Of a DNA stretch of 64,000 nt, positions 6,362-59,630 are shown piece by piece. A program made the position numbers and the translations under genes. Source of the DNA: Eledone cirrhosa (lineage: Eukaryota); assembly GCA_964016885.1 (NCBI GenBank), contig CAXHJY010000646.1, positions 9,057 to 73,056 of the forward strand. Direction: 5' to 3'. The notes beneath the pieces are model-generated. The model did no database searches, had not been told where the DNA came from, and worked only from the letters and a program-made list of their open reading frames with translations. Numbering within the stretch: position 1 is the stretch's first letter; each line of letters begins with the position of its first letter.

Positions 6362-6831
6362 AAGGTAAATAGAAATAACAACACAATCGATACAGTATAT
6401 GGAAGGTATATATTAGGTTAACGCTTGATATAGCAGGAAGAGGGTCTTAACGTTTCGGACGCTAGTCCTTCATCAGAAGAAAGAATGAGAAATAAAATAG
6501 ATTGAGGGGACGGGCGGGTTGGAATTGGAAAAAATGTCTTTAGATAAAAATAACAGGTCCATTCATGTTGACATCTCTTGGAAAACTGTTGGTGCTGGCG
6601 TTTTGTGTATGATTTATTTTTTAGAAAAGTGGATGATGGAGCGCGTCTACCTGAAATGGGAAAAAAAACAAAACGTTTTGTAAAACGAGCTAAACTTGTG
6701 AGTAAAAGAGTGTGTGCTTGTAAGTAAGAAACTATGAGCAAAAGTATGTAAATATAAGGGTGTGTGTGTATACAGAGCAGTGAAGGGAAAAAGGAGTGTG
6801 CATAGTTTGTTGGTCTGTATTGGTTGTAAGA

Positions 6832-7300: not shown

Positions 7301-8584
7301 ATGTATAATAAGCCACTATACTTAGCCTTTGTCGACCTAGAGAAGGCCTTTGATAGGGTACCCTCTTCTGTCATCTGGTGGTCCCTAGGTGTTGAGGAAT
7401 GGCTTGTGAGGACAGTGCAAACTTTGAACAGAGGTACTCTCAGTAAAGTCAGGGTAGGAATGGAGTTTAGTGAGGAATTCCAGGTACAAGTAGGAGTACA
7501 TCAAGGTTCGGTCCTCAGCCCGCTCTTGTTCATTATAGTCCTCCAAGCCATAACAGAGGAGTTTAAGACTGGCTGTTCATGGGAACTTCTCTATGCTGAT
7601 GATCTGGTTCTTATAGCAGAATCAGTAGAGGAGCTAGAGAATAAATTCTGGTTATGGAAACAGCACTTTGAATCAAGAGGACCGAGAGTGAACCTAGCTA
7701 AGACAAAAGTGTTGATGAGTAGAAAAGAGGACAGAACTCTGATTCCGTCAGGGAAATGGCCATGTTCGATATGCAGAAAAGGAACGGGCATAAATTCTAT
7801 AAAATGCACACAATGCAGATCCTGGGTACACAAGAGATGTAGTGGGAAAGCAGGCAAGCTAACAGGTAGGGAGAAATACGTATGCAGTAGATGCACAGGG
7901 AAAATAGACAGTAGAAGTCGCATTGATAGACATAGACACACTTTTCAAATGCAGGAGGGCGCTATAGAAGTGGTGGATAGCTTCCGGTACCTAGGAGATC
8001 AGATTAGCATGGGTTGAGGGTGTTCCGAGGCCATAGTATCTAGAATAAGGACGGGTTGGAAGAAGTTTAGGAAGCTGCTTCCTCTACTGACGAAGAAGGG
8101 TTTCTCCCTGCGTCCGAAAGGCCGGTTGTATGATGCCTGTGTGAGGATCGCGATGCTGCATGGTAGTGAGACATGGGCAGCAACCGCAGAGGATATGCGA
8201 CGGCTGGAGAGAAATGAGGCAAGCATGCTCCGTTTGATGTGCAGTGTAGATGTGCGTGAACGACCCAGCGTATATGTGTTGAGAGAGAAACTGTGTCTGA
8301 GAGGGATAGAATGTAGTGTACGGGAGAGGAGACTGAGGTGGTATGGACATGTGATGCGCATGGAATATGACCGATGGGTGAAGCAGTGCCAGGAATTGCC
8401 AGTTGAAGGAAGACGTGGTAGACCACGAAAAACATGGGCGGAGGTGGTGAGAACAGACCTCAGATCATTGAAGCTCACGGTGGAGATGACGAAGGACCGT
8501 GACGAGTGGAGAGATGCTGTGCTGAATAAGACCCGTCCCACCCTTGCAAGCAGGGAAAAGTGGATGCAAGATGATGATGATGAT
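7301..8584 (+). mobile_element. 5'-truncated RTE-clade LINE (RT C-terminal half with PHD-like insert, (GAT)n tail)
   Basis: Motifs FVDLEKAFDRV, GVHQGSVLSP, LLYADDL, FRYLG, RRLRWYGHV and RGRPRKTW; premature stop at 8015-8017. Confidence 0.95.
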
Positions 8585-14282: not shown

Positions 14283-14820
14283 TAAAAGGTAAACAGAAAT
14301 AATAACACAATCGGTACAGTATATGGAAGGAATATATTAGGTTAACACTTGATATAGCAGGAAGAGGGTCCTAACGTTTCGGACGCTAGTCCTTCATCAG
14401 AAGAAAGAATGAGAAATAAAATAGATTGAGGGGACAGGCGGGATGGAATTTGGAAAAATGTCTTTAGATAAAAATAAGAGGTCCATTCATGGTGACATCT
14501 CTTGGAAAACTGTTGATGCTGGCGTTTTGTGTATGATTTGTTTTTTAGAAAAGTGGATGATTGAGCGCGTCTACCTGAAATGGGAAAAAAAAAAACTTTT
14601 TGTAAAAAGAGCTATACTTGAGCACGTGCGTAAGCATGAGTTTGTGCGTACGTGTCTGTGTGTGTGTGTTATTATACTTTTGTACGAAGCTAAGAAGAAA
14701 TGTCCGTATATCTAAGTAAAAGAGTGTGTACATGTAAGTACGAAGCTATGAGGGTGTGTATGTGTGTATACAGAACAGTGGAGTGAGCATATATAGTCGG
14801 CCTGTGTTAGTTGTAAGAGA
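14283..14820 (-). mobile_element. Penelope-like pseudo-LTR repeat (copy 2) with hammerhead at 14369-14404
   Basis: Homologous to 6362-6832. HHR TCTT-CTGATGA-A-GGAC-TAGC-GTCC-GAAAC-GTT-AGGA, where a G-U wobble keeps stem I. Confidence 0.65.
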
Positions 14821-16507: not shown

Positions 16508-16918
16508 ATTATATATATAATAACAATAATTTAAGAATTATCAATAATAATAGTCCATAATTTTTTTTCCTCTTAGTCAGTATTTTTTTCTAAATTTGTA
16601 TGATGCTTGAAATGTTTTTCCAGATTTATGGAGACAAGTTGCAAATAATTCGTTTTTTTTTTGTTAATTAAATTACCATAATTGGTAATTATTAATAGAG
16701 TTTCTAAATTTCAAAGATTGCAATTTAGTGAGATGGAAGCGTTCCGATAGAAATTGAGTATTTAATATTTTTCTCTTTTAAAGACCATATTAATTGTGAT
16801 AATGAAGTAGAAAGTTTTTTATCTGGATTTGAGAAAGAATGTTTATGATTGGAAAAGCAAAACTTAAAGTTCAATGAAGTGGCACCAATGTAGTTATAAG
16901 TATTATTATTATTTGTCT

Positions 16919-28408: not shown

Positions 28409-28452
28409 TACCACTGATGATGTTGCAGATGTGCAACGAAAGAACTTTGTTA
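28409..28452 (+). ncRNA. Hammerhead motif in the PLE 3' pseudo-LTR
   Basis: TACCA-CTGATGA-T-GTTGCA-GATG-TGCAAC-GAAAG-AA-CTT-TGTTA: 6-bp stem II, one mismatch in stem I. It lies about 230 bp downstream of the GIY-YIG stop on the same strand. Confidence 0.65.
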
Positions 28453-34324: not shown

Positions 34325-37300
34325 ATACAGAGATGTACACACGCACACATTCACACACTTACACACACACATACACACACATACACGTACACAGATACAC
34401 ATGTACACACAAATACAATACACACATGTACACACACATACACACATACACATACACACATGTACACACACATACACACAATGTATTTCTCCCCTCTGTA
34501 ATTACAGTTCCTTACTGCATGAAGTTTTGTGCATTACACACACATCGACAAACATACACACATCGACAAACACACACACATCGACAAACACACACACATC
34601 GACAAACACACACACATCGACAAACACACACACACACATCGACAAACACACACACACATCGACAAACACACACACACCGACAAACACACACGTCTACAAA
34701 CACACACACATCTACAAACACACACACACATTTACAAACACACACATCTACAAACACACATACACACATACACGCATATACACACACACACGCACATACA
34801 CACACAGGTCCACACACACACTCACACACAGGTACACACACACATACGCGTACACACACACACACACGCACAGACACATACACACACACATGCACAGACA
34901 CACACATCCATACAGACACACACATCCATACAGACACACGCCTTCATACAGACACACACCTTCATACAGACACACACATCCATACAGACACATCCATACA
35001 GACACACACATTCATACAGACACACACATCCATACAGACACACACATCCATACACAGACACACACATCCATACACAGACACACACCTTCATACAGACACA
35101 CACATCCATACAGACACACACCTTCATACAGACACACACATCCATACAGACACACACCTTCATACAGACACACACATCCATACAGACACACACCTTCATA
35201 CAGACACACACCTTCATACAGACACACACATCCATACAGACACACACATCCATACAGACACACACATCCATACAGACACACACATCCATACAGACACACA
35301 CATCCATACACAGACACACACATCCATACACAGACACACACATCCATACACAGACACACACCTTCATACAGACACACACATCCATACAGACACACACCTT
35401 CATACAGACACACACATCCATACAGACACACACCTTCATACAGACACACACCTTCATACAGACACACACATCCATACAGACACACACCTTCATACAGACA
35501 CACACATCCACACAGACACACACATCCATACAGACACACACCTTAATACAGACACACACATCCATACAGACACACACATCCATACAGACACACACCTTCA
35601 TACAGACACACACCTTCATACAGACACACACATCCATACAGACACACACCTTCATACAGACACACACCTTCATACAGACACACACCTTCATACAGACACA
35701 CACCTTCATACAGACACACACATCCATACAGACACACACCTTCATACAGACACACACATCCATACAGACACACACATCCATACAGACACACACCTTCATA
35801 CAGACACACACCTTCATACAGACACACACCTTCATACAGACACACACCTTCATACAGACACACACCTTCATACAGACACACACATCCATACAGACACACA
35901 CCTTCATACAGACACACACCTTCATACAGACACACACCTTCATACAGACACACACATCCATACAGACACACACCTTCATACAGACACACACCTTCATACA
36001 GACACACACCTTCATACAGACACACACATCCATACACAGACACACACCTTCATACAGACACACACATCCATACAGACACACATCCATACAGACACACACA
36101 TTCATACAGACACACACATCCATACAGACACACACCTTCATACAGACACACACCTTCATATAGACACACACATCCATACAGACACACACATCCACACAGA
36201 CACACACATCCATACAGACACACACATCCATACAGACACACACCTTCATACAGACACACACATCCATACAGACACACACATCCATACAGACACACACCTT
36301 CATACAGACACACACCTTCATACAGACACACACATCCATACAGACACACACCTTCATACAGACACACACATCCATACAGACACACACATCCATACAGACA
36401 CACACATTCATACACAGACACACACCTTCATACAGACACACACATCCATACAGACACACACGTTCATACAGACACACACATCCACACAGACACACACATC
36501 CACACAGACACACACATCCATACAGACACACACATCCATACAGACACACACCTTCATACAGACACACACATCCATACAGACACACACATCCATACAGACA
36601 CACACATCCATACAGACACACACATTCATACAGACACACACATCCATACAGACACACACGTTCATACAGACACACACATCCATACAGACACACACATCCA
36701 TACAGACACACACATCCATACAGACACACACATTCATACAGACACACACATCCATACAGACACACACGTTCATACAGACACACACATCCATCCATACAGA
36801 CACACACATCCATACAGACACACACATTCATACACAGACACACACCTTCATACAGACACACACATCCATACAGACACACACGTTCATACAGACACACACA
36901 TCCATACAGACACACACATCCACACAGACACACACATCCATACAGACACACACATCCATACAGACACACACCTTCATACAGACACACACATCCATACAGA
37001 CACACACATCCATACAGACACACACATCCATACAGACACACACATTCATACAGACACACACATCCATACAGACACACACGTTCATACAGACACACACATC
37101 CATACAGACACACACATTCATACACAGACACACACATCCATACAGACACACACATCCATACAGACACACACCTTAATACAGACACACACCTTCATACAGA
37201 CACACACATCCATACACAGACACACACCTTCATACAGACACACACCTTCATACAGACACACACATCCATACAGACACACACGTTCATACAGACACACACA

Positions 37301-38546: not shown

Positions 38547-38589
<43 letters not shown>

Positions 38590-38720
38590 GATAAATCTAC
38601 CAAAAGTTTACGGTAGTGTCCAATCCGTATGAAGAACTCAATGTAATCCGGATATCATGGAAAGAAGAGATGCATTCAAAAATCACTTTCGTTGAAAGAT
38701 AAACGGAATACAGAGTCAAG

Positions 38721-39151
38721 ATAAAATGTTAAAAAAATAATGAATAAAACAATGAAACAGTTCCTTATATTAAACAAAAAAAGTTCATTATTTAACGATC
38801 GTTTCTAGGACACATATGTGTTAGAATTGGCATGCATATTCAACAGATCTATGTACAAAATTATACAAAATTATACAAACTATCAAATATAATATACATA
38901 CCAACACATACATATGCCGTCTTCAGAAATAATTTTTTCTAATTATTTCTGAAGACGGCATATGTATGTGTTGGTATGTATATTATATTTGATAGTTTGT
39001 ATAATTTTGTATAATTTTGTACATAGATCTGTTGAATATGCATGCCAATTCTAACACATATATGTCCTAGAAACGATCGTTAAATAATGAACTTTTTTTG
39101 TTTAATATAAGGAACTGTTTCATTGTTTTATTCATTATTTTTTTAACATTT

Positions 39152-39154
<3 letters not shown>
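38721..39154. repeat. Near-perfect palindrome (214-bp arms, 6-nt loop) containing an extended hammerhead in each arm
   Basis: Arms 38721-38934 and 38941-39154 with one visible mismatch. HHR core CTGAAGA at 38949-38955 and GAAACGATCGTT at 39070-39081. Confidence 0.9.
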
Positions 39155-39182
<28 letters not shown>

Positions 39183-39233
39183 CTACCACTCAAAAATTTT
39201 CAACTATATAATTCAATTGGATACAGAGTCAAA

Positions 39234-39594
39234 ATAGAAATATTAAAACAATGAAATTAAACACAAAACTGTTAATTCATAGTAAAACTCATTATTTTAC
39301 GATCGTTTCGGGGGGGGGGGGGGTAGTTCCCTGCATGTTCATTCTATTATTGATCTATGTAAAACATATTACAAAATATCATAGTAAGAAAAAATACATG
39401 CCGTAATTTCTGAAGACGGTGGGTAGTGAAAACGTATGTATTTTTTCTCACTATGATATTTTGTAACATATTTTACATAGATCAATAATAGAATGAACAT
39501 ACAGAGAACTAGCCCCCAGAAACGATCGTAAAATAATGTGTTTTACTATGAATTATCAGTTTTGTGTTTAATTTCATTGTTTTAATATTTCTAT
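39234..39594. repeat. Diverged palindrome of the same family with a hammerhead core
   Basis: CTGAAGA at 39410-39416, GAAACGATCGTA at 39519-39530; stem I ATTT/AAAT. Confidence 0.85.
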
Positions 39595-39797
39595 ATATAT
39601 TAAAATAACAGATTAAAGTTTAAGCAAAGAATCGCTGCTTTCACCCTTAACGGGATCTTCTGAAACTCTTTGGATTTTAGACTTCACATTTATTATTACT
39701 ATATATATATATATATATACACATGTATGTGTATATATGTGTATTTACACATACACTTGAAGGAGTTCTGTTGTTTCTGTGTTTCAAATGAAATAAT

Positions 39798-40068
39798 TGT
39801 TTCTACTTTTGGCACAAGGCCAGCAAATACCCAGTACTTTATTTTATCAACCCCGTAAGGATGAAAGACAAAGTTAACCTCGGTGGGATTTGAACTCGGA
39901 TCGTAAAGGGACATAACTATGCTGGAAAGCATGTCCGACCCTCTGCCAATTCTGCCAATCCACCAAATAATTGTTTCTACTTTAGGCACAAGGCCAGCAA
40001 TTACCCAGTGCATTACTGGTACTTTATTTTATCGACCCCGTAAGGATGAAAGGCAAATCAACCTCGGC
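39798..40068 (-). mobile_element. Tandem pair of SINE family A
   Basis: Two copies separated and flanked by AAATAAT. Confidence 0.88.
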
Positions 40069-41870: not shown

Positions 41871-42554
41871 AATTTAATAATATAACTTTCTCATTATTAT
41901 CTTTGGAACATAACAGAGTTTCTTACATAAATTTAAGATAGATTTTTTTAGTTTAATCTAACCACTTCAAAAGCAACATTTTGTATCAGAGAACCAGATG
42001 TTTCAAGTGATTTCATATGAAAAGAGTTACTACTTGATATCTGCATTATCTCCCTTTGGTACGTTACAGAAAAATAATTTACAGCATTGATTTCCAAACC
42101 TATTTTGTTACACTACACCTATATGATTTTTAAAAACATCACATAACTTATACCTACATTTTTCAGAGTCTCTCCACCACCCTAATTTTAATAAGATATT
42201 AAATGAAATTAAAATGTGTAAATATAGTTGCCATAATGCAGATAACTATAATAATAGTATATGATTCTAAATATTAACTGAACAAATCGAGTCAAGTTCT
42301 CCTGAACACTGATAAAGTGTGTCTCTTGTTCACATTTTTCCACCTTCTGGGGCACTCTACTCAGTTTATTCAACTATTATTTTTAAAGACCAAGTATTAA
42401 TATAGTTATTTACATTGTGGTCACTACATTTTCAAATTTCCAAATGATTCATAAGTCAACCAAATACAGGTTACACTTTTAGAGAGGAAAATTGTTTTGG
42501 AAAGAAAATTTATTCTCATAAAACAACAACAAAAGCAAAGAACAAGATACCGCA

Positions 42555-45500
42555 ATGGTAAACATTCCACTACAGTGGTGTGACATCCTCCACTGTGGTA
42601 AACATGCCACTTCAGTGGTGTGACATCCTCCACTGTGGTAAACATTCCACTTCAGTGGTGTGACATCCTCCACTGTGGTAAACATTCCACTTCAGTGGTG
42701 TGACATCCTCCACTGTGGTAAATATTCCACTTCAGTGGTGTGACATCCTCCATTGTGGTAAACATTCCACTTCAGTGGTGTGACATCCTCCACTGTGGTA
42801 AACATTGTACTTCAGTGGTGTGACATCCTCCACTGTGGTAAACATGCCACTTCAGTGGTGTGACATCCTCCATTGTGGTAAACATTCCACTTCACTGGTG
42901 TGACATCTTCCACTGTGGTAAACATTGTACTTCAGTGGTGTGACATCCTCCACTGTGGTAAACATTCCACTTCAGTGGTGTCACATCCTCCACTGTGGTA
43001 AACATTCCACTTCAGTGGTGTCACATCCTCCATTGTGGTAAACATTCCACTGCAGTGGTGTCACATCCTCCATTGTGGTAAATATTCCACTTCAGTGGTG
43101 TGACATCTTCCACTGTGGTAAACATTCCACTTCAGTGGTGTGACATCCTCCACTTCAGTGGTGTGACATCCTCCACTGTGGTAAACATTCCACTACAGTG
43201 GTGTGACATCCTCCACTGTGGTAAACATTGTACTTCAGTGGTGTGACATCCTCCACTGTGGTAAACATTCCACTTCAGTGGTGTCACATCTTCCACTGTG
43301 GTAAACATTCCACTTCAGTGGTGTCACATCCTCCACTGTAGTAAACATTCCACTACAGTGGTGTGACATCCTCCACTGTGGTAAACATTCCACTTCAGTG
43401 GTGTGACATCCTCCACTGTGGTAAACATTCCACTTCAGTGGTGTCACATCCTCCACTGTGGTAAACATTCCACTTCAGTGGTGTGACATCCTCCACTGTG
43501 GTAAACATTCCACTTCAGTGGTTTCACATCCTCCACTGTGGTAAACATTCCACTTCAGTGGTGTCACATCCTCCACTGTGGTAAACATTCCACTTCAGTG
43601 GTGTCACATCCTCCACTGTGGTAAACATTCCACTTCAGTGGTGTCACATCCTCCAATGTGGTAAACATGCCACTTCAGTGGTGTGACATCCTCCACTGTG
43701 GTAAACATTCCACTTCAGTGGAGTGACATCCTCCACTGTTGTAAACATTCCACTTCAGTGGTGTCACATCCTCCACTGTGGTAAACATTCCACTTCAGTG
43801 GTGTCACATCTTCCACTGTGGTAAACATTCCACTTCAGTGGTGTCACATCCTCCACTGTAGTAAACATTCCACTACAGTGGTGTGACATCCTCCACTGTG
43901 GTAAACATTCCACTTCAGTGGTGTGACATCCTCCACTGTGGTAAACATTCCACTTCAGTGGTGTGACATCCTCCACTGTGGTAAACATTCCACTTCAGTG
44001 GTGTGACATCCTCCACTGTGGTAAACATTCCACTTCAGTGGTGTGACATCCTCCACTGTGGTAAATATTCCACTTCAGCGGTGTGACATCCTCCACTGTG
44101 GTAAACATTCCACTTCAGTGGTGTGACATCCTCCACTGTGGTAAACATTCCACTTCAGTGGTGTGACATCCTCCACTGTGGTAAATATTCCACTTCAGTG
44201 GTGTGACATCCTCCACTGTGGTAAACATTCCACTTCAGTGGTGTGACATCCTCGACTGTGGTAAACATTCCACTTCAGTGGTGTGACATCCTCCACTGTG
44301 GTAAATATTCCACTTCAGTGGTGTGACATCCTCCACTGTGGTAAACATTGTACTTCAGTGGTGTGACATCCTCCACTGTGGTAAACATTCCACTTCAGTG
44401 GTGTCACATCCTCCACTGTGGTAAACATTCCACTTCAGTGGTGTGACATCCTCCACTGTGGTAAACATTCCACTTCAGTGGTGTGACATCCTCCACTGTG
44501 GTAAACATGCCACTTCAGTGGTGTGACATCCTCCACTGTGGTAAACATGCCACTTCAGTGGTGTGACATCCTCCACTGTGGTAAACATGCCACTTCAGTG
44601 GTGTGACATCCTCCACTGTGGTAAACATTCCACTTCAGTGGTGTGACATCCTCCATTGTGGTAAACATTCCACTTCAGTGGTGTGACATCCTCCATTGTG
44701 GTAAACATTCCACTTCAGTGGTGTGACATCCTCCACTGTGGTAAACATGACACTTCAGTGGTGTCACATCCTCCACTGTGGTAAACATGCCACTTCAGTG
44801 GTGTGACATCCTCCACTGTGGTAAACATTCCACTTCAGTGGTGGTAAATATTCCACTTCAGTTGTGTGACATCCTCCACTGTGGTAAACATTCCACTTCA
44901 GTGGTGTGACATCCTCCACTGTGGTAAACATTGTACTTCAGTGGTGTGACATCCTCCACTGTGGTAAACATGCCACTTCAGTGGTGTGACATCCTCCACT
45001 GTGGTAAATATTCCACTTCAGTGGTGTCACATCCTCCACTGTGGTAAACATGCCACTTCAGTGGTGTGACATCCTCCACTGTGGTAAACATTCCACTTCA
45101 GTGGTGTGACATCCTCGACTGTGGTAAACATGCCACTTCAGTGGTGTGACATCCTCCACTGTGGTAAATATTCCACTTCAGTGGTGTGACATCCTCCATT
45201 GTGGTAAACATTGTACTTCAGTGGTGTGACATCTTCTACTGTGTTAAACATTCCACTTCAGTGGTGTCACATCCTCCATTGTGGTAAACATTGTACTTCA
45301 GTGGTGTGACATCCTCCACTGTGGTAAACATTCCACTTCAGTGGTGTGACATCCTCCACTGTGGTAAACATTCCACTTCAGTGGTGTGACATCCTCCACT
45401 GTGGTAAACATTCCACTTCAGTGGTGTGACATCTTCCACTGTGGTAAACATTCCACTTCAGTGGTGTGACATCCTCCATTGTGGTAAACATTGTACTTCA

Positions 45501-46400
45501 GTGGTGTGACATCTTCTACTGTGGTAAACATTCCACTTCAGTGGTGTCACATCCTCCATTGTGGTAAACATTGTACTTCAGTGGTGTGACATCCTCCACT
45601 GTGGTAAACATTCCACTTCAGTGGTGTGACATCCTCCACTGTGGTAAACATTCCACTTCAGTGGTGTCACATCCTCCACTGTGGTAAACATGCCACTTCA
45701 GTGGTGTGACATCCTCCACTGTGGTAAACATTCCACTTCAGTGGTGTGACATCTTCCACTGTGGTAAACATTCCACTTCAGTGGTGTGACATCCTCCACT
45801 GTGGTAAACATTCCACTTCAGTGGTGTGACATCCTCCCCTGTGGTAAACACTGTACTTCAGTGGTGTGACATCCTCCACTGTGGTAAATATTCCACTTCA
45901 GTGGTGTGACATCTTCCACTGTGGTAAACATTCCACTTCAGTGGTGTGACATCCTCCACTGTGGTAAACATTCCACTTCAGTGGTGTGACATCTTCCACT
46001 GTGGTAAACATTCCACTTCAGTGGTGTGACATCCTCCATTGTGGTAAACATTGTACTTCAGTGGTGTGACATCTTCTACTGTGGTAAACATTCCACTTCA
46101 GTGGTGTGACATCCTCCCCTGTGGTAAACACTGTACTTCAGTGGTGTGACATCCTCCACTGTGGTAAACATTCCACTTCAGTGGTGTGACATCCTCCACT
46201 GTGGTAAACACTGTACTTCAGTGGTGTGACATCCTCCCCTGTGGTAAACACTGTACTTCAGTGGTGTGACATCCTCCACTGTGGTAAATATTCCACTTCA
46301 GTGGTGTGACATCTTCTACTGTGGTAAACATTCCACTTCAGTGGTGTGACATCTTCCACTGTGGTAAACATTCCACTTCAGTGGTGTGACATCCTCGACT
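42555..46400. repeat. 40-bp minisatellite (about 96 units)
   Basis: Unit AACATTCCACTTCAGTGGTGTGACATCCTCCACTGTGGTA with internal palindromes CCACT-TC-AGTGG and CCAC-T-GTGG. Confidence 0.97.
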
Positions 46401-47234
46401 TTTAACCAATGAATCAATAACTATTGTTCTTTTATTTTTTTGTTTCAGTCATTAGACTGTGGCCATGCTGCTGCACCACTTTCATAGAGATTTAGTTGAT
46501 GATAATGACCCTAGTTTTTAATATAAGCACTAACACAAAGATAAACATAGACACACATACACTTCACACACTTTCACGCCTGCACACACATATCTGTGTG
46601 TATGTGTGGAGTGTAAATGAAAAGATCACCAAAGTTCAATACATTAATACGTTATTTGGTTTACAAATGTTTCATTCCACTACAACTGATGTAGCACTTA
46701 GTAACTTTATAGAGAACTCTTCAGGATCATATATAATATAGGAAATATTTATTTACCAAACATGTTCTTAAGTCTCCAGCCGTGAACATTTGAAAATTGT
46801 AAATAAAGATTATTTCCTTTAGGGATAACATTAAAAGTTATGAAAGGCCAGAAGTGTTGGAATTATTTTAACTGTACAAAATATCTAGTGGTTAGTTTGA
46901 CTGGTATTTTCATCATTAGTGTTTTGACTTCAATACGAGTGAAGTTAGTACATGTACATCCAATAATTTTTTTTCACGGAAGTTACATCTCATTTAATTT
47001 CAATAAACAGTATTTTAAGAGCTAATATTCTAAAAAAAACTTATGGAAGCCCGTGGTGTTCCTTTCATTTTTATGCTCTGTGATTTGCAAATCTACAATG
47101 ACTGGAAATCTACAAATTCGATTTATCTTTGAACTGTCGGCAATCTGGATATTGACCAAATTACATTAGAGCTTTAAATATCTAAATACCTTATATACAG
47201 CTTTACCATCAACTCATATAGTTTACCTTATATA

Positions 47235-52890: not shown

Positions 52891-53830
52891 TGAGATTCTA
52901 CAGGACTAGAACAGTTTCATTCTTTAGAAATCATCAGGAATCTGGGTATCAAAAGATAAATATGGTATTTATAGGTCTCTTCGGGGGGTAGGAGAGGGTA
53001 GGGAGTGGGATGGGTGGAGGTCATTGGTTGAAAGAAAAGGGAATTCATTAAAAGCTTATTCTTTAAAGCTATAATTTATATTTAGAGTAACAAAGGCAGA
53101 AAGAATTCTATAAACAAATTCAGAATGGGGTGCCACTCCTTATGTTTAAGTTTCTCTTAAGCTAATAATTGTTTCTACTTTTTGGCACAAGGCCAGCAAT
53201 TATCCCAGTACATTACCTAATAATTGTTTCTACTTTAGGCACAAGGCCAGCAATTATCCAGTGCATTACTGGTACTTTATTTTATCGACCCCGTAAGGAT
53301 GAAAGGCAAAGTCAACCTCGGCGGGATTTGAACTCAGATCGTAAAGGGACGTAACTATGCTGGAAACATGGCGTCCGACCTTCTACCGATACTGCCAATC
53401 CACCGCCCTAATAATTGTTTCTACATTTGGCACAAGGCCAGCAATTACCCAGTGTATTACTGGTACTTTATTTTATCGACCCCAAAAGGATGAAAGGCAA
53501 AGTTAACCTCGGCGCGTTTTGAACTCAGAATGGCAAGGACCGTAACTCTATGCGTCAAAGCATGGCGTCCGACCCTCTACCGATACTGCCAATCCACCGC
53601 CCTAATAATGCCTAGATTTCAGGTGTCTATAAGATGGTTGGGGTCAGTCATGGTTGATGGATTTAAAGAAAATGAAAATTCTTTAAAAGCTAATTCTTTA
53701 AGGTTCTACATAGAGTGACAATGGCCAAGAGAATTCTATAGACCAGTTCAAAATATTGAGTGCCTATCATACCATTATCTTCAAGTTTCTCTTACACTAT
53801 AGTCCAAATGTCAACAGACACATTCACAAA
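52889..53830 (-). mobile_element. Hammerhead family B repeat, copy 2 (HHR 52893-52943), interrupted by SINEs
   Basis: Intact CTGATGA core; direct repeat of 52141-52640. Confidence 0.7.
53170..53602 (-). mobile_element. Three tandem SINE family A copies (one truncated)
   Basis: Each copy is separated by CTAATAAT; the empty site is visible at 52421-52430. Confidence 0.9.
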
Positions 53831-54851: not shown

Positions 54852-54857
<6 letters not shown>

Positions 54858-55232
54858 TAATAAAAACAATGAAATAAAAAAAAAAGAACAAATTCCTTAT
54901 ATTAAAAACTTCATTCTTTAACGATCGTTTCTGGGATGTATATGTGTGTTGGTATGTATATCATATAGATCTATGTAAAAATATTACAAATTATCAGAGG
55001 AAATATACATACATTCACATATACATGCCGAGCCGACCTCATCATTTCTGAGGATGGCATATATATGTGAAGGTATGTACATTTCCTCTGATAATTTGTA
55101 ATATTTTTACATAGATCTATATGATATACATACCAACACACATATACATCCCAGAAACGATCATAAAATGATGAACTTTTCAATATGAGGAACTTGTTCT
55201 TTGTTTTTATTTCATTGTTTTTATTAATTTAT
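54852..55232. repeat. Palindrome of the extended-hammerhead family
   Basis: CTGAGGA at 55048-55054, GAAACGATCATA at 55154-55165; 9-bp stem I TCATCATTT/AAATGATGA. Confidence 0.85.
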
Positions 55233-55307
55233 CTAGACTCCGTTTATCATGAAAAGAGAAGATGCATTCAAAAATTTTCGATAAAAATCATATATATTAT
55301 TTATATA

Positions 55308-56718: not shown

Positions 56719-56727
56719 TATATAATA

Positions 56728-57106
56728 TATGATATTAAATAAATGGAAACTATATTTATAAAACCATATTTATTTCGTTATATATATTTCAGGGATATCA
56801 TATTAACAATATATTATGCCTTCTTCAGACAAAATACAATATAAACAGTCTTATAAATAAATAGATACGACATACCTTTCAATCACCTTGCATTTGGGAG
56901 GTTGATTTGGCAGTAATCAACTGCCAAATCAACCTCCCAAATGCAAGGTGATTGAAAGGTATGTCGTATCTATTTATTTATAAGACTGTTTATATTGTAT
57001 TTTGTCTGAAGAAGGCATAATATATTGTTAATATGATATCCCTGAAATATATATAACGAAATAAATATGGTTTTATAAATATAGTTTCCATTTATTTAAT
57101 ATCATA
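56728..57106. repeat. Apparently perfect palindrome (187-bp arms, 5-nt loop) with a hammerhead in each arm
   Basis: TATTTTGT-CTGAAGA (57006)-stem II-GAAAT-ATAT-ATA-ACGAAATA (57063). Confidence 0.9.
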
Positions 57107-57216
57107 AATATACTCCAAATACTTGTTGAGTGCTTTTATATCAGTTATAAATATTTACTCGTTGTTAACCCAACAATTTAAATATAACTTTCCATCTATA
57201 TAGAATATATATATAA

Positions 57217-59064: not shown

Positions 59065-59630
59065 TGTGAATGTGTCTGTTGATTCTTGGCATATAGTTGA
59101 ATAGTTTAACAGAAAGTTGAAGATAATTGTATGATATGCACTCAATATTTTGAATTTGTCTACAGAATTCTCTAAACCTTTGTCACTTAGTAGAACCTTA
59201 AAGAATTTAGCTTTAAATCTATCAACCATGACTGACCCCCACTGATCTTATAGACACCTGTTAGCTTAAGAGAAACTTAATAATAAGGAGTGGCACCCCA
59301 TCCTGAACCTGTTTATAGAATTCTTTCTGCCTTTGTTAATCTAAAAATAAAAATAAAAATGAACTATAGATTTGTAGAATTAGCTTTTAATGAATTCCCT
59401 TTTCTATCAACCAATGACCTCCACCCATCCCACTTCCTACCTTCTCCTACCCCCTGAAGAGACCTATAAATACCATACTTATTTTTTGATACCCAGATTC
59501 CTGATGACTTCTAAAGAATGAAACGGTTCTAGTCCTGTAGAATCTCATCTATATTAAAACTTTTATACTCTGCAATGTATTGAGTATCTTACTTACTGTG
59601 GTTACCTCCGATTCAACACGGAATAACGTA
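59065..59630 (+). mobile_element. Hammerhead family B repeat, copy 3
   Basis: CCAAT at 59411 and TATAAA at 59465, then the HHR at 59495-59545 and a conserved tail. Confidence 0.7.
59495..59545 (+). ncRNA. Type I hammerhead ribozyme with three stems
   Basis: AGATTC-CTGATGA-C-TTCT-AA-AGAA-T-GAA-ACGG-TTCTAGTC-CTGT-A-GAATCT; predicted cleavage after GUA. Confidence 0.7.

Follow-up and report, generated by a model that had tools for sequence, protein, structure and literature searches.

Three palindromes lie in the window, a 64,000-nucleotide stretch of the Eledone cirrhosa genome, and each carries the two halves of a hammerhead ribozyme core separated by about 100 nt, raising the question of what kind of element they are and what their ribozyme is for. 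A first-pass annotation, made from the letters alone, had described them as a non-coding family derived from Penelope-like retroelements (PLEs), in which a palindromic transcript could switch between self-cleavage and a long double-stranded RNA hairpin.

The palindromes and their split cores were borne out. The pattern CTGA(A/G)GA ... GAAACGATC occurs four times in the window, at 38949-39078(+), 38797-38926(-), 39410-39527(+) and 55048-55162(+), versus no match in 100 shuffles, and the core spacers are 114, 114, 102 and 99 nt, respectively, in line with the roughly 100-115 nt originally noted; scissile bonds are predicted 3' of 39081, 39530 and 55165. In copy 1 (38721-39154) the two arms agree in 213 of 217 columns, and all but one of the four mismatches fall in the middle; copies 2 and 3 are less exact palindromes (self-identity 86% and 89%). 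A full core on each strand is present in copy 1 alone, where, as annotated, either strand holds a complete ribozyme together with its antisense; in copies 2 and 3 the left arm ends ahead of the core. The boundaries first drawn for copy 1 enclose its palindromic arms but miss a one-sided ‘tail’ of 137 nt, which moves its start from 38721 to 38584; this tail corresponds, in reverse complement, to the 137 nt that in intact units come after the pseudo-LTR (pLTR) end on the side of the ATG, and the tails of copies 2 and 3 are shortened (Table 1). Single plus-strand arms fold into long rods (z = -3.7 for copy 1, -5.2 for copy 3 and -1.4 for copy 2).

Table 1. Positions of the palindromic copies and their parts in the window.
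Feature	Positions	Strand	Basis or remark
(TA)n microsatellite next to copy 1, probable target site	38549..38583	.	Sequence; Hydra-clade (TA)n preference described in PMC8557442
Copy 1 tail, 137 nt, one-sided	38584..38720	-	38584-38933 matches intact unit L080 at 95%
Copy 1 left arm, family A pLTR, complete hammerhead	38721..38933	-	Core from 38926, H17 at 38794
Copy 1 inter-arm junction	38934..38941	.	Arms both end at A of ATTATTT
Copy 1 right arm, without tail	38942..39154	+	100% identical copies elsewhere in the genome
Copy 1 right arm, stem I	38942-38948 with 39082-39088	+	
Copy 1 right arm, core CTGAAGA	38949-38955	+	GAAA from 39070
Copy 1 right arm, domain II, 114 nt	38956-39069	+	
Copy 1 right arm, palindromic stem III	39073-39080	+	Predicted cut after 39081
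(TA)n separating copies 1 and 2	39155..39176	.	Sequence
Copy 2 tail, shortened	39177..39233	-	Compared with family B tail in L045
Copy 2 left arm, family B, ends within domain II, without core	39234..39403	-	
Copy 2 right arm, 4-bp stem I, 102-nt domain II	39406..39594	+	Core 39410-39416, predicted cut after 39530
Copy 3 left arm, family C, ends just before core	54852..55030	-	
Copy 3 right arm, 9-bp stem I, 99-nt domain II	55038..55232	+	Core CTGAGGA 55048-55054
Copy 3 tail, shortened	55233..55288	+	Compared with L060 and L228

Elsewhere in the window, a fourth fold-back pair of another family (about 56720-57200) bears a hammerhead-like core with a 31-nt spacer in each arm (56787-56828, minus; 57006-57047, plus); its right arm alone is extended, by ~100 nt, and a relative flanks locus L031. 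Short hammerhead-like cores were also seen at 6453-6476(-), 14377-14400(-), 8087-8119(+), 28414-28441(+), 52915-52937(-) and 59501-59523(+), the window holding 11 short-pattern matches versus 1.9 expected. Tandem repeats comprise a 40-nt array of ~100 registers (~42400-46500) and a long low-complexity array (~34400-35300). An Rfam search of the window returned no hammerhead, and its miRNA matches there, far under the gathering scores, were discarded as hairpin or microsatellite artefacts.

The identity of the element emerged from copies elsewhere in the 3.0-Gb genome. Querying with the copy 1 arm yielded 760 candidates; the 40 scored were ~99-100% identical, and several matches formed inverted pairs ~5-6 kb apart with an open reading frame (ORF) in between. 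Arm copies fully identical to that in the window flank ORFs for reverse transcriptase (RT) and a putative endonuclease, in support of the proposed Penelope-like origin. A protein search yielded 25,658 candidates, and well over half of the 138 scored lay in open frames of >800 codons. The pLTRs occur both in inverted pairs and in tandem, with a one-sided tail: in each of two arrays, four units of 6.65-6.67 kb follow one another head to tail, with ORFs that differ at 0-5 of 2,442 bases. Every unit has one hammerhead, sense to the ORF, ~3.7 kb past the stop codon and ~490 nt upstream of the next ATG. Across the element, units measure 5.5-6.7 kb, including a repeat-rich 3' region of 2.7-3.7 kb. 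Searches for the sister families gave 1,140 candidates for copy 2 (family B) and 1,624 for copy 3 (family C), and families B, C and D adjoin ORF pieces of 55-90% identity. Because families A-D adjoin ORFs and autonomous copies exist, with intact ORFs between the same ends, the description as a non-coding family was wrong: the copies in the window are paired in inverted orientation and come from an element with an ORF, unlike the non-coding head-to-tail tandems of retrozymes. A MITE or foldback DNA transposon was likewise rejected, since the points of 5' truncation vary among the arms and the interior codes for an RT.

The intact ORF specifies an 813-residue protein, with RT and a putative GIY-YIG domain, that carries the motifs RWR, DKT, YRDD, CNCRNKANC (CxCX5C), CRLC (CxxC) and CNH (CxH), a set that fits the definition of the Hydra clade by RWK-like, DKT, CxCX5C, CxxC and CxH motifs (PMC8557442). 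Its predicted structure (pLDDT 85.6) has telomerase reverse transcriptase (TERT) as its top eight Foldseek matches; a Pfam search of the protein gave no RT match. In the putative GIY-YIG domain, the IVY...YIG, R, E and N positions align across relatives; against PF01541, the homolog P0001 scored below the cut-off (E 0.012) and the query protein itself had no match. Units of 5.5-6.7 kb and a domain II (CUGANGA to GAAA) of 95-116 nt depart from the traits by which the clade is described (generally <3 kb, canonical small hammerhead), and this oversizing is the ground for calling the element a variant. The palindromes are 5'-truncated inverted pLTR pairs of Hydra-clade PLEs.

Three further observations concern coding sequence in or beside such elements. 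The minus strand of the window at 16607-16889 holds what is left of a decayed Hydra-type ORF at its endonuclease end, ~50% identical to the family A protein. An ORF for a C2H2 zinc-finger array lies directly beside a tandem element (L036:8361-9146), and in L080:780-1900 the long 3' region of the element opens with diverged internal repeats resembling the last codons of the ORF.

Genome-wide, the core stands above background, as the first-pass annotation had anticipated: CTGANGA-N90-120-GAAACGATCGT has 12,774 exact matches, including a few artefacts and incidental matches from family E and from CTGATGA in family D, versus 11 for the reversed pattern. Spacers of 8-38 nt gave 127 matches and those of 39-68 nt gave 117, some being deletion derivatives and some small families, with intermediate lengths among them. 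Clustering of 267 arms produced families A-D, whose domain II sequences are 54-83% alike, together with families F and G, which are 41-53% alike to A-D and to one another in this domain; domain II is predicted to form a rod of ~35-45 pairs in A-D and a multibranched structure in F and G. Two apparent variants were rejected: the loci grouped as ‘family E’ (L091, L101, L120, L127, L128, L134 and L135) are not long-form, their real motif having a 20-nt spacer and their CTGACGA being the reverse complement of the 3' end, and CTGATGA inside family D is incidental, the true core there being TTGA(C/A)AA.

The core positions C3-U4-G5-A6-N7-G8-A9, G12-A13-A14, A15.1-U16.1 and H17 are present in all families. 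Positions 3 and 8 are C3-G8 or U3-A8 in 18 of 18 aligned rows; family D makes this swap (6 of the 18 rows; carriers L240 and L302-L311), its form of the pattern having 1,349 matches versus 34 for the control, and the same exchange was previously reported in Schistosoma PLEs (PMC4209133). H17 is A, C or U in 13 examples, the script having required H at this position. Positions 10.1 and 11.1, an R-Y pair (usually G-C) in type I hammerheads, form G-C in family G and are an unpaired C10.1/A11.1 in most A-D and F copies; an unpaired base is frequent here in published Hydra motifs (PMC8557442 File S2).

Stem I strands pair over 4-12 bp within their own family and 0-3 bp across clades, and both sides have changed in 5 of 9 pairs. 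The stem I covariation that had been proposed is thus seen as compensatory pairs between families, but the ATTT/AAAT of copy 2 is a stem shortened by truncation. The base of stem II differs between copies yet remains roughly complementary, as noted at the outset, with mostly family-specific, covarying pairing, except that in family H (63 nt) the 3' strand pairs promiscuously. The palindrome ACGAUCGU forms stem III, which is invariant and hence uninformative for covariation and offers 2 bp in a monomer; it is palindromic in general, although the plus arm of copy 3 breaks it by G16.2>A, where G is normal for its family. On 18 natural A-D copies, related to each other, the hammerhead model pairs in 86.6% of 754 cells with 60 double-changed cells, a score matched by 0 of 500 shuffles, and slid controls pair in 27-53%; the number of base pairs in which both partners have changed (16 of 42), however, was reached by 44 of 500 shuffles and is not significant. 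Two helices of the long stem pair at 72-76% across families, partly through misaligned B and D. The counts, the covariation of stems I and II and the U3-A8 compensation predict a type I hammerhead with palindromic stem III, under ribozyme constraint.

Other arrangements accompany the long form of families A-D. Family G (L124-L126, L167-L181) has a 95-nt multibranched domain II with a G10.1-C11.1 pair and is retrozyme-like, forming direct repeats ~600-720 nt apart (for example, L169:2305 and 3025); its fetched loci (L124-L126, L167-L181, L253-L257) showed no link to an ORF beyond one 31% fragment. Its 600-720 nt direct repeats resemble the non-LTR retrozymes of animals, non-coding hammerhead repeats thought to derive from pLTRs, whereas the window elements are inverted and have autonomous partners, unlike such non-coding head-to-tail tandems (PMC7229834; bioRxiv 10.64898/2026.07.22.740005). 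Family F (L121-L123, L152-L166, L260) has a 96-nt domain II, older copies (79-85% alike) and one inverted ORF fragment ~42% identical to family A. Family H (L294) is intermediate in length: its domain II measures 63 nt and its stem I 7 bp. In the rare copies L144, L146, L295 and L296 domain II is deleted to 12-57 nt with core and stems kept. Among contigs from four sequencing runs, those of organisms B and C cover parts of the ribozyme.

The claim that this stem II is unusually long withstood comparison with published motifs and with an outgroup. Published Hydra hammerheads, one octopus family included, combine a 3-7 bp stem II with a 3-10 nt loop (PMC8557442 File S2), and the core-only hammerhead descriptor in PMC8557442 spans 7-17 nt. 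We scanned 77 Hydra-like loci from metagenome contigs with plain patterns, covering spacers outside 69-89 nt and up to 120 nt. The short pattern occurred in 65 of the 77, in 54 on the sense strand outside the ORF match; the long pattern occurred in 15 loci, in 12 of them within the ORF and in two sharing a core with a short match, and the remaining one, on the minus strand, did not look like a hammerhead when inspected by eye. Of the 12 loci that lacked a short match, three were read through and contained no long form, and with these patterns 0 of the 77 loci had the long form only. In the literature searched, which took in few subscription papers and one supplement, we found no report of a stem II of ~100 nt. 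The nearest known cases are the ‘large’ 7-8 bp helix II of minimal PLE hammerheads (PMC4209133), viral motifs with a 6-8 bp stem II (PMC13725137), two plant PLE motifs with spacers of ~45-55 nt (PMC8557442 File S2) and the CLEC2 hammerheads, whose insertions lie in loop 1 or 3 (PMC2950038); the parts of PMC3088659 and PMC7229834 covered held nothing longer. The element and the ribozyme are each of a known kind, in an architecture and at a scale not encountered in the literature searched. It had also been suggested that standard searches would likely miss this form with its long stem II; Rfam does fail to detect it, but length is not the sole reason, as an Rfam search of 14 loci that included short-form Hydra loci found no hammerhead either.

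Where the copies stop offers a view of the transcript. We took an unselected sample of 99 genuine motif places among the first 100 listed (first 39 Mb, contig 1), one family E row being excluded; omission of four CTGATGA rows (families D and G) left 95 A-C arms, by construction core-retaining arms only. Arms ended 0-8 nt ahead of the core in 44 of 95 cases, and in 22 of 95 exactly at the first A of TCATT(A/C)TTT (ATTATTT/ATCATTT), the base at which both copy 1 arms end; the element itself is several kb long. Of the 22 exact stops, six are fusions to a SINE-like 3' end, perhaps one chimeric subfamily (both arms in L208/L251), and with such fusions removed 38 of 89 arms end 0-8 nt ahead of the core. 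Genome-wide, G:T just before the stop A is 428:506, against 29:290 one base further in; subtracting the 134 G cases (106 + 28) explained by the partner arm leaves 294:506, a ~6-fold G enrichment. The sequence TCATT at the stop base presumably corresponds to the Initiator consensus, and an AATAAA 5-9 nt upstream of the stop A is what we take to be the end signal of the previous unit. As an untemplated 5' G has been linked to reverse transcription of the cap in work on L1 (PMC9341517), the extra G at the stop base points to a capped transcript start, and Drosophila Penelope has an internal promoter with its start within the pLTR (PMC2377424). The stop hot spot is thus likely to mark a capped transcript start at this A.

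The SINE-like 3' end is fused at the A of ATTATTT in three subfamilies and nine arms (loci L005, L053, L198, L207, L208, L209 and L216), and the same repeat lies in the window at 39790-39850; template jumps or targeted insertion are suggested as alternative origins. Junctions with short reiterated copies of the arm end (L188, L192 and L217) suggest repeated priming or templated end-joining.

The predicted cut site, by comparison, is nearly silent in the genome: no more than 109 family A ends out of 7,558 (1.4%) show a deviation three bases upstream of the scissile bond, and the first 30 of these comprise 10 intact copies with a substitution, four stem I snap-backs and 16 other junctions. Because deviating ends are so few, cleaved RNA leaves little genomic trace, and integration templates would therefore be mostly uncleaved or religated RNA, as for the anole element in vitro (PMC11167929).

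The hot spot could have another origin, in which RT, as it exits the ribozyme structure, stalls or jumps to another template, and the junction is set by A/T-rich microhomology between ATTATTT and AAATAAT. Many junctions do use AAATAAT/ATTATTT overlaps or small duplications, the snap-backs among the 30 cut-site cases run through stem I microhomology, and the partner arm accounts for nearly a third of the G junctions; yet one base takes half of the 44 stops, also at plain (TA)n flanks, the residual 294 G junctions remain ~6-fold above the neighbouring position, and stem I pairing reaches 2-3 nt past the stop point, so that we regard stalling as an unlikely source of the hot spot, albeit one to be taken seriously.

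Folding calculations bear on whether and when the ribozyme would act, and a less stable active fold, a core-sequestering off-pairing and the mostly unpaired 10.1/11.1 speak against activity. For 10 of 10 long-form copies, the best fold lies 2.0-6.5 kcal/mol below the active monomer fold, and in a short control the gap is 11.6 kcal/mol. Stem III has only 2 bp as a monomer but forms an 8-bp self-duplex of -10.0 kcal/mol, and therefore fits the dimer model for hammerheads with a palindromic stem III (PMC6765202). An off-pairing, UUUCUG/YAGAA, that sequesters the core is found in 14 of 14 aligned A-D copies; RNAalifold on these 14 recovered the apical hairpin and the off-pairing, and not the hammerhead fold. 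The apical GAU/AUC and UGUA/UACA pairs are invariant in the 18-copy alignment. The predicted hammerhead probably cleaves only as a dimer or with help from protein, and cleavage in vivo would give 5'-OH ends at AAAUAAUG.

The same conserved features could be read as those of a hammerhead that no longer cleaves and is retained as a folded, protein-binding or promoter-proximal structure, the long rod and invariant apical motif serving ribonucleoprotein assembly. The conserved off-pairing, the invariant apical pairs and the faint trace at the cut site would all suit such a role, as would the finding that cleavage mutants of the anole element insert normally (PMC11167929). Against this, U3-A8 compensation and a covarying stem I are requirements of a catalytic core, and a PLE hammerhead that is inactive alone cleaves once protein is present (PMC11167929), leaving us to consider loss of cleavage improbable. 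The switch between self-cleavage and a regulatory double-stranded hairpin in a non-coding family, for which one could cite the complete ribozyme and antisense on either strand of copy 1, the frequency of such palindromes (cores <60 nt apart in 13 of 25 sampled inverted pairs) and the double-stranded RNA that read-through would produce, is very hard to sustain, because on either strand the antisense arm is made first and the full copy 1 hairpin is far more stable than the active ribozyme fold (-325.7 versus ~-36 kcal/mol, a difference of ~290), autonomous ORF-bearing copies exist, and most palindromes are uneven truncations of the kind expected of insertion by-products. Transcripts starting at the palindrome centre and running outward would avoid the hairpin trap.

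We consider it quite probable, in sum, that the palindromes are 5'-truncated pLTR copies paired back to back in (TA)n, with the predicted hammerhead at the capped 5' end of the transcript. From the anatomy onward, we infer a series of steps from sequence. RNA polymerase II would, in our judgement rather likely, start at the first A of TCATT(A/C)TTT, which is also the first base of stem I, giving an RNA of cap, hammerhead, 5' UTR and ORF, and the AATAAA just upstream would terminate the previous unit. With good confidence, drawn from a PLE protein that cuts both strands, starts reverse transcription at two internal RNA sites and yields a one-sided tail (PMC11167929), we expect the element protein to cut both DNA strands and to prime at two internal sites of the 5' region. 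Two priming sites are indicated because in 20 of 25 sampled inverted pairs just one of the arms has a tail, and because 50 of 53 arms lacking a tail continue into microsatellite, mostly (TA)n; the sites, ~137 nt apart, would leave one arm with a tail and one without. On uncleaved RNA, the two cDNAs would reach the 5' terminus and end there, at ~215 and ~350 nt, before being end-joined into a short palindrome, and read-through or circular RNA would give the long and tandem copies. The ribozyme itself, we think with fair assurance, is predicted to cut 3' of GUH when dimerized through stem III or assisted by protein, and to be kept otherwise in the slightly more stable off-fold; cleavage would decap the mRNA or free unit-length RNA.

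A bolder reading, which we offer tentatively as a whole, is that in this young, high-copy Penelope lineage the capped mRNA opens with an oversized hammerhead that stays off until protein or a second copy arrives, that domain II is a protein-docking arm, that cleavage is a cap-removal switch between mRNA and transposition template, and that thousands of short palindromes are run-off records of the capped 5' end. The long domain II may in that case have arisen more than once, because its sequences in A-D, F and G are only 41-53% alike. If true, this would be an in-genome answer to what PLE hammerheads are for.

The element shares with the Hydra clade, Hydra-1_Obim included, a single ORF with RW(K/R), DKT, the CxCX5C linker, a putative C-terminal GIY-YIG, CxxC and CxH, as well as (TA)n insertion, tandem and inverted pLTRs and a type I hammerhead with short palindromic stem III (PMC8557442). 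It differs in its unit length (5.5-6.7 kb versus under ~3 kb; PMC8557442), in its 95-116 nt domain II compared with a 3-7 bp stem and 3-10 nt loop (PMC8557442 File S2), and in its thousands of young copies; the 137-nt tail compares with 30-40 bp described for PLEs (PMC8557442), and the protein, judged by eye, appears to fall in a family other than that of Hydra-1_Obim. Like minimal PLE hammerheads (PMC4209133), it is type I with a dimer-implying palindromic stem III, an extra base after A9 and the U3-A8 variant, but those have a helix II of 7-8 bp, versus ~35-45 predicted pairs or, in F and G, a multibranch here. The Poseidon element PAc of the green anole (PMC11167929) offers parallels in double-strand cutting, two internal RT starts, a one-sided tail and an uncleaved template, drawn here from genomic anatomy; PAc is of another clade, however, and its small hammerhead overlaps the start codon, unlike the one here ~490 nt before the ATG. 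As in the discontinuous CLEC2 hammerheads (PMC2950038), a large insertion splits the core and standard patterns miss it; theirs lies in loop 1 or 3 within single-copy mammalian 3' UTRs, whereas here it is a structured stem II in a mobile element.

The role of the hammerhead in PLEs has been called unclear (PMC8557442). Exact predictions about that role can be drawn from this family, which is young and has intact ORFs, tandem units that are almost identical and >14,000 motif matches; they cover the start base, the cut site, the two priming sites and a natural compensatory core. Selection tolerates large structured insertions in stem II, and hammerheads are therefore likely to be undercounted by descriptors limited to tens of nucleotides, an undercount that possibly extends to elements reported as being without hammerheads.
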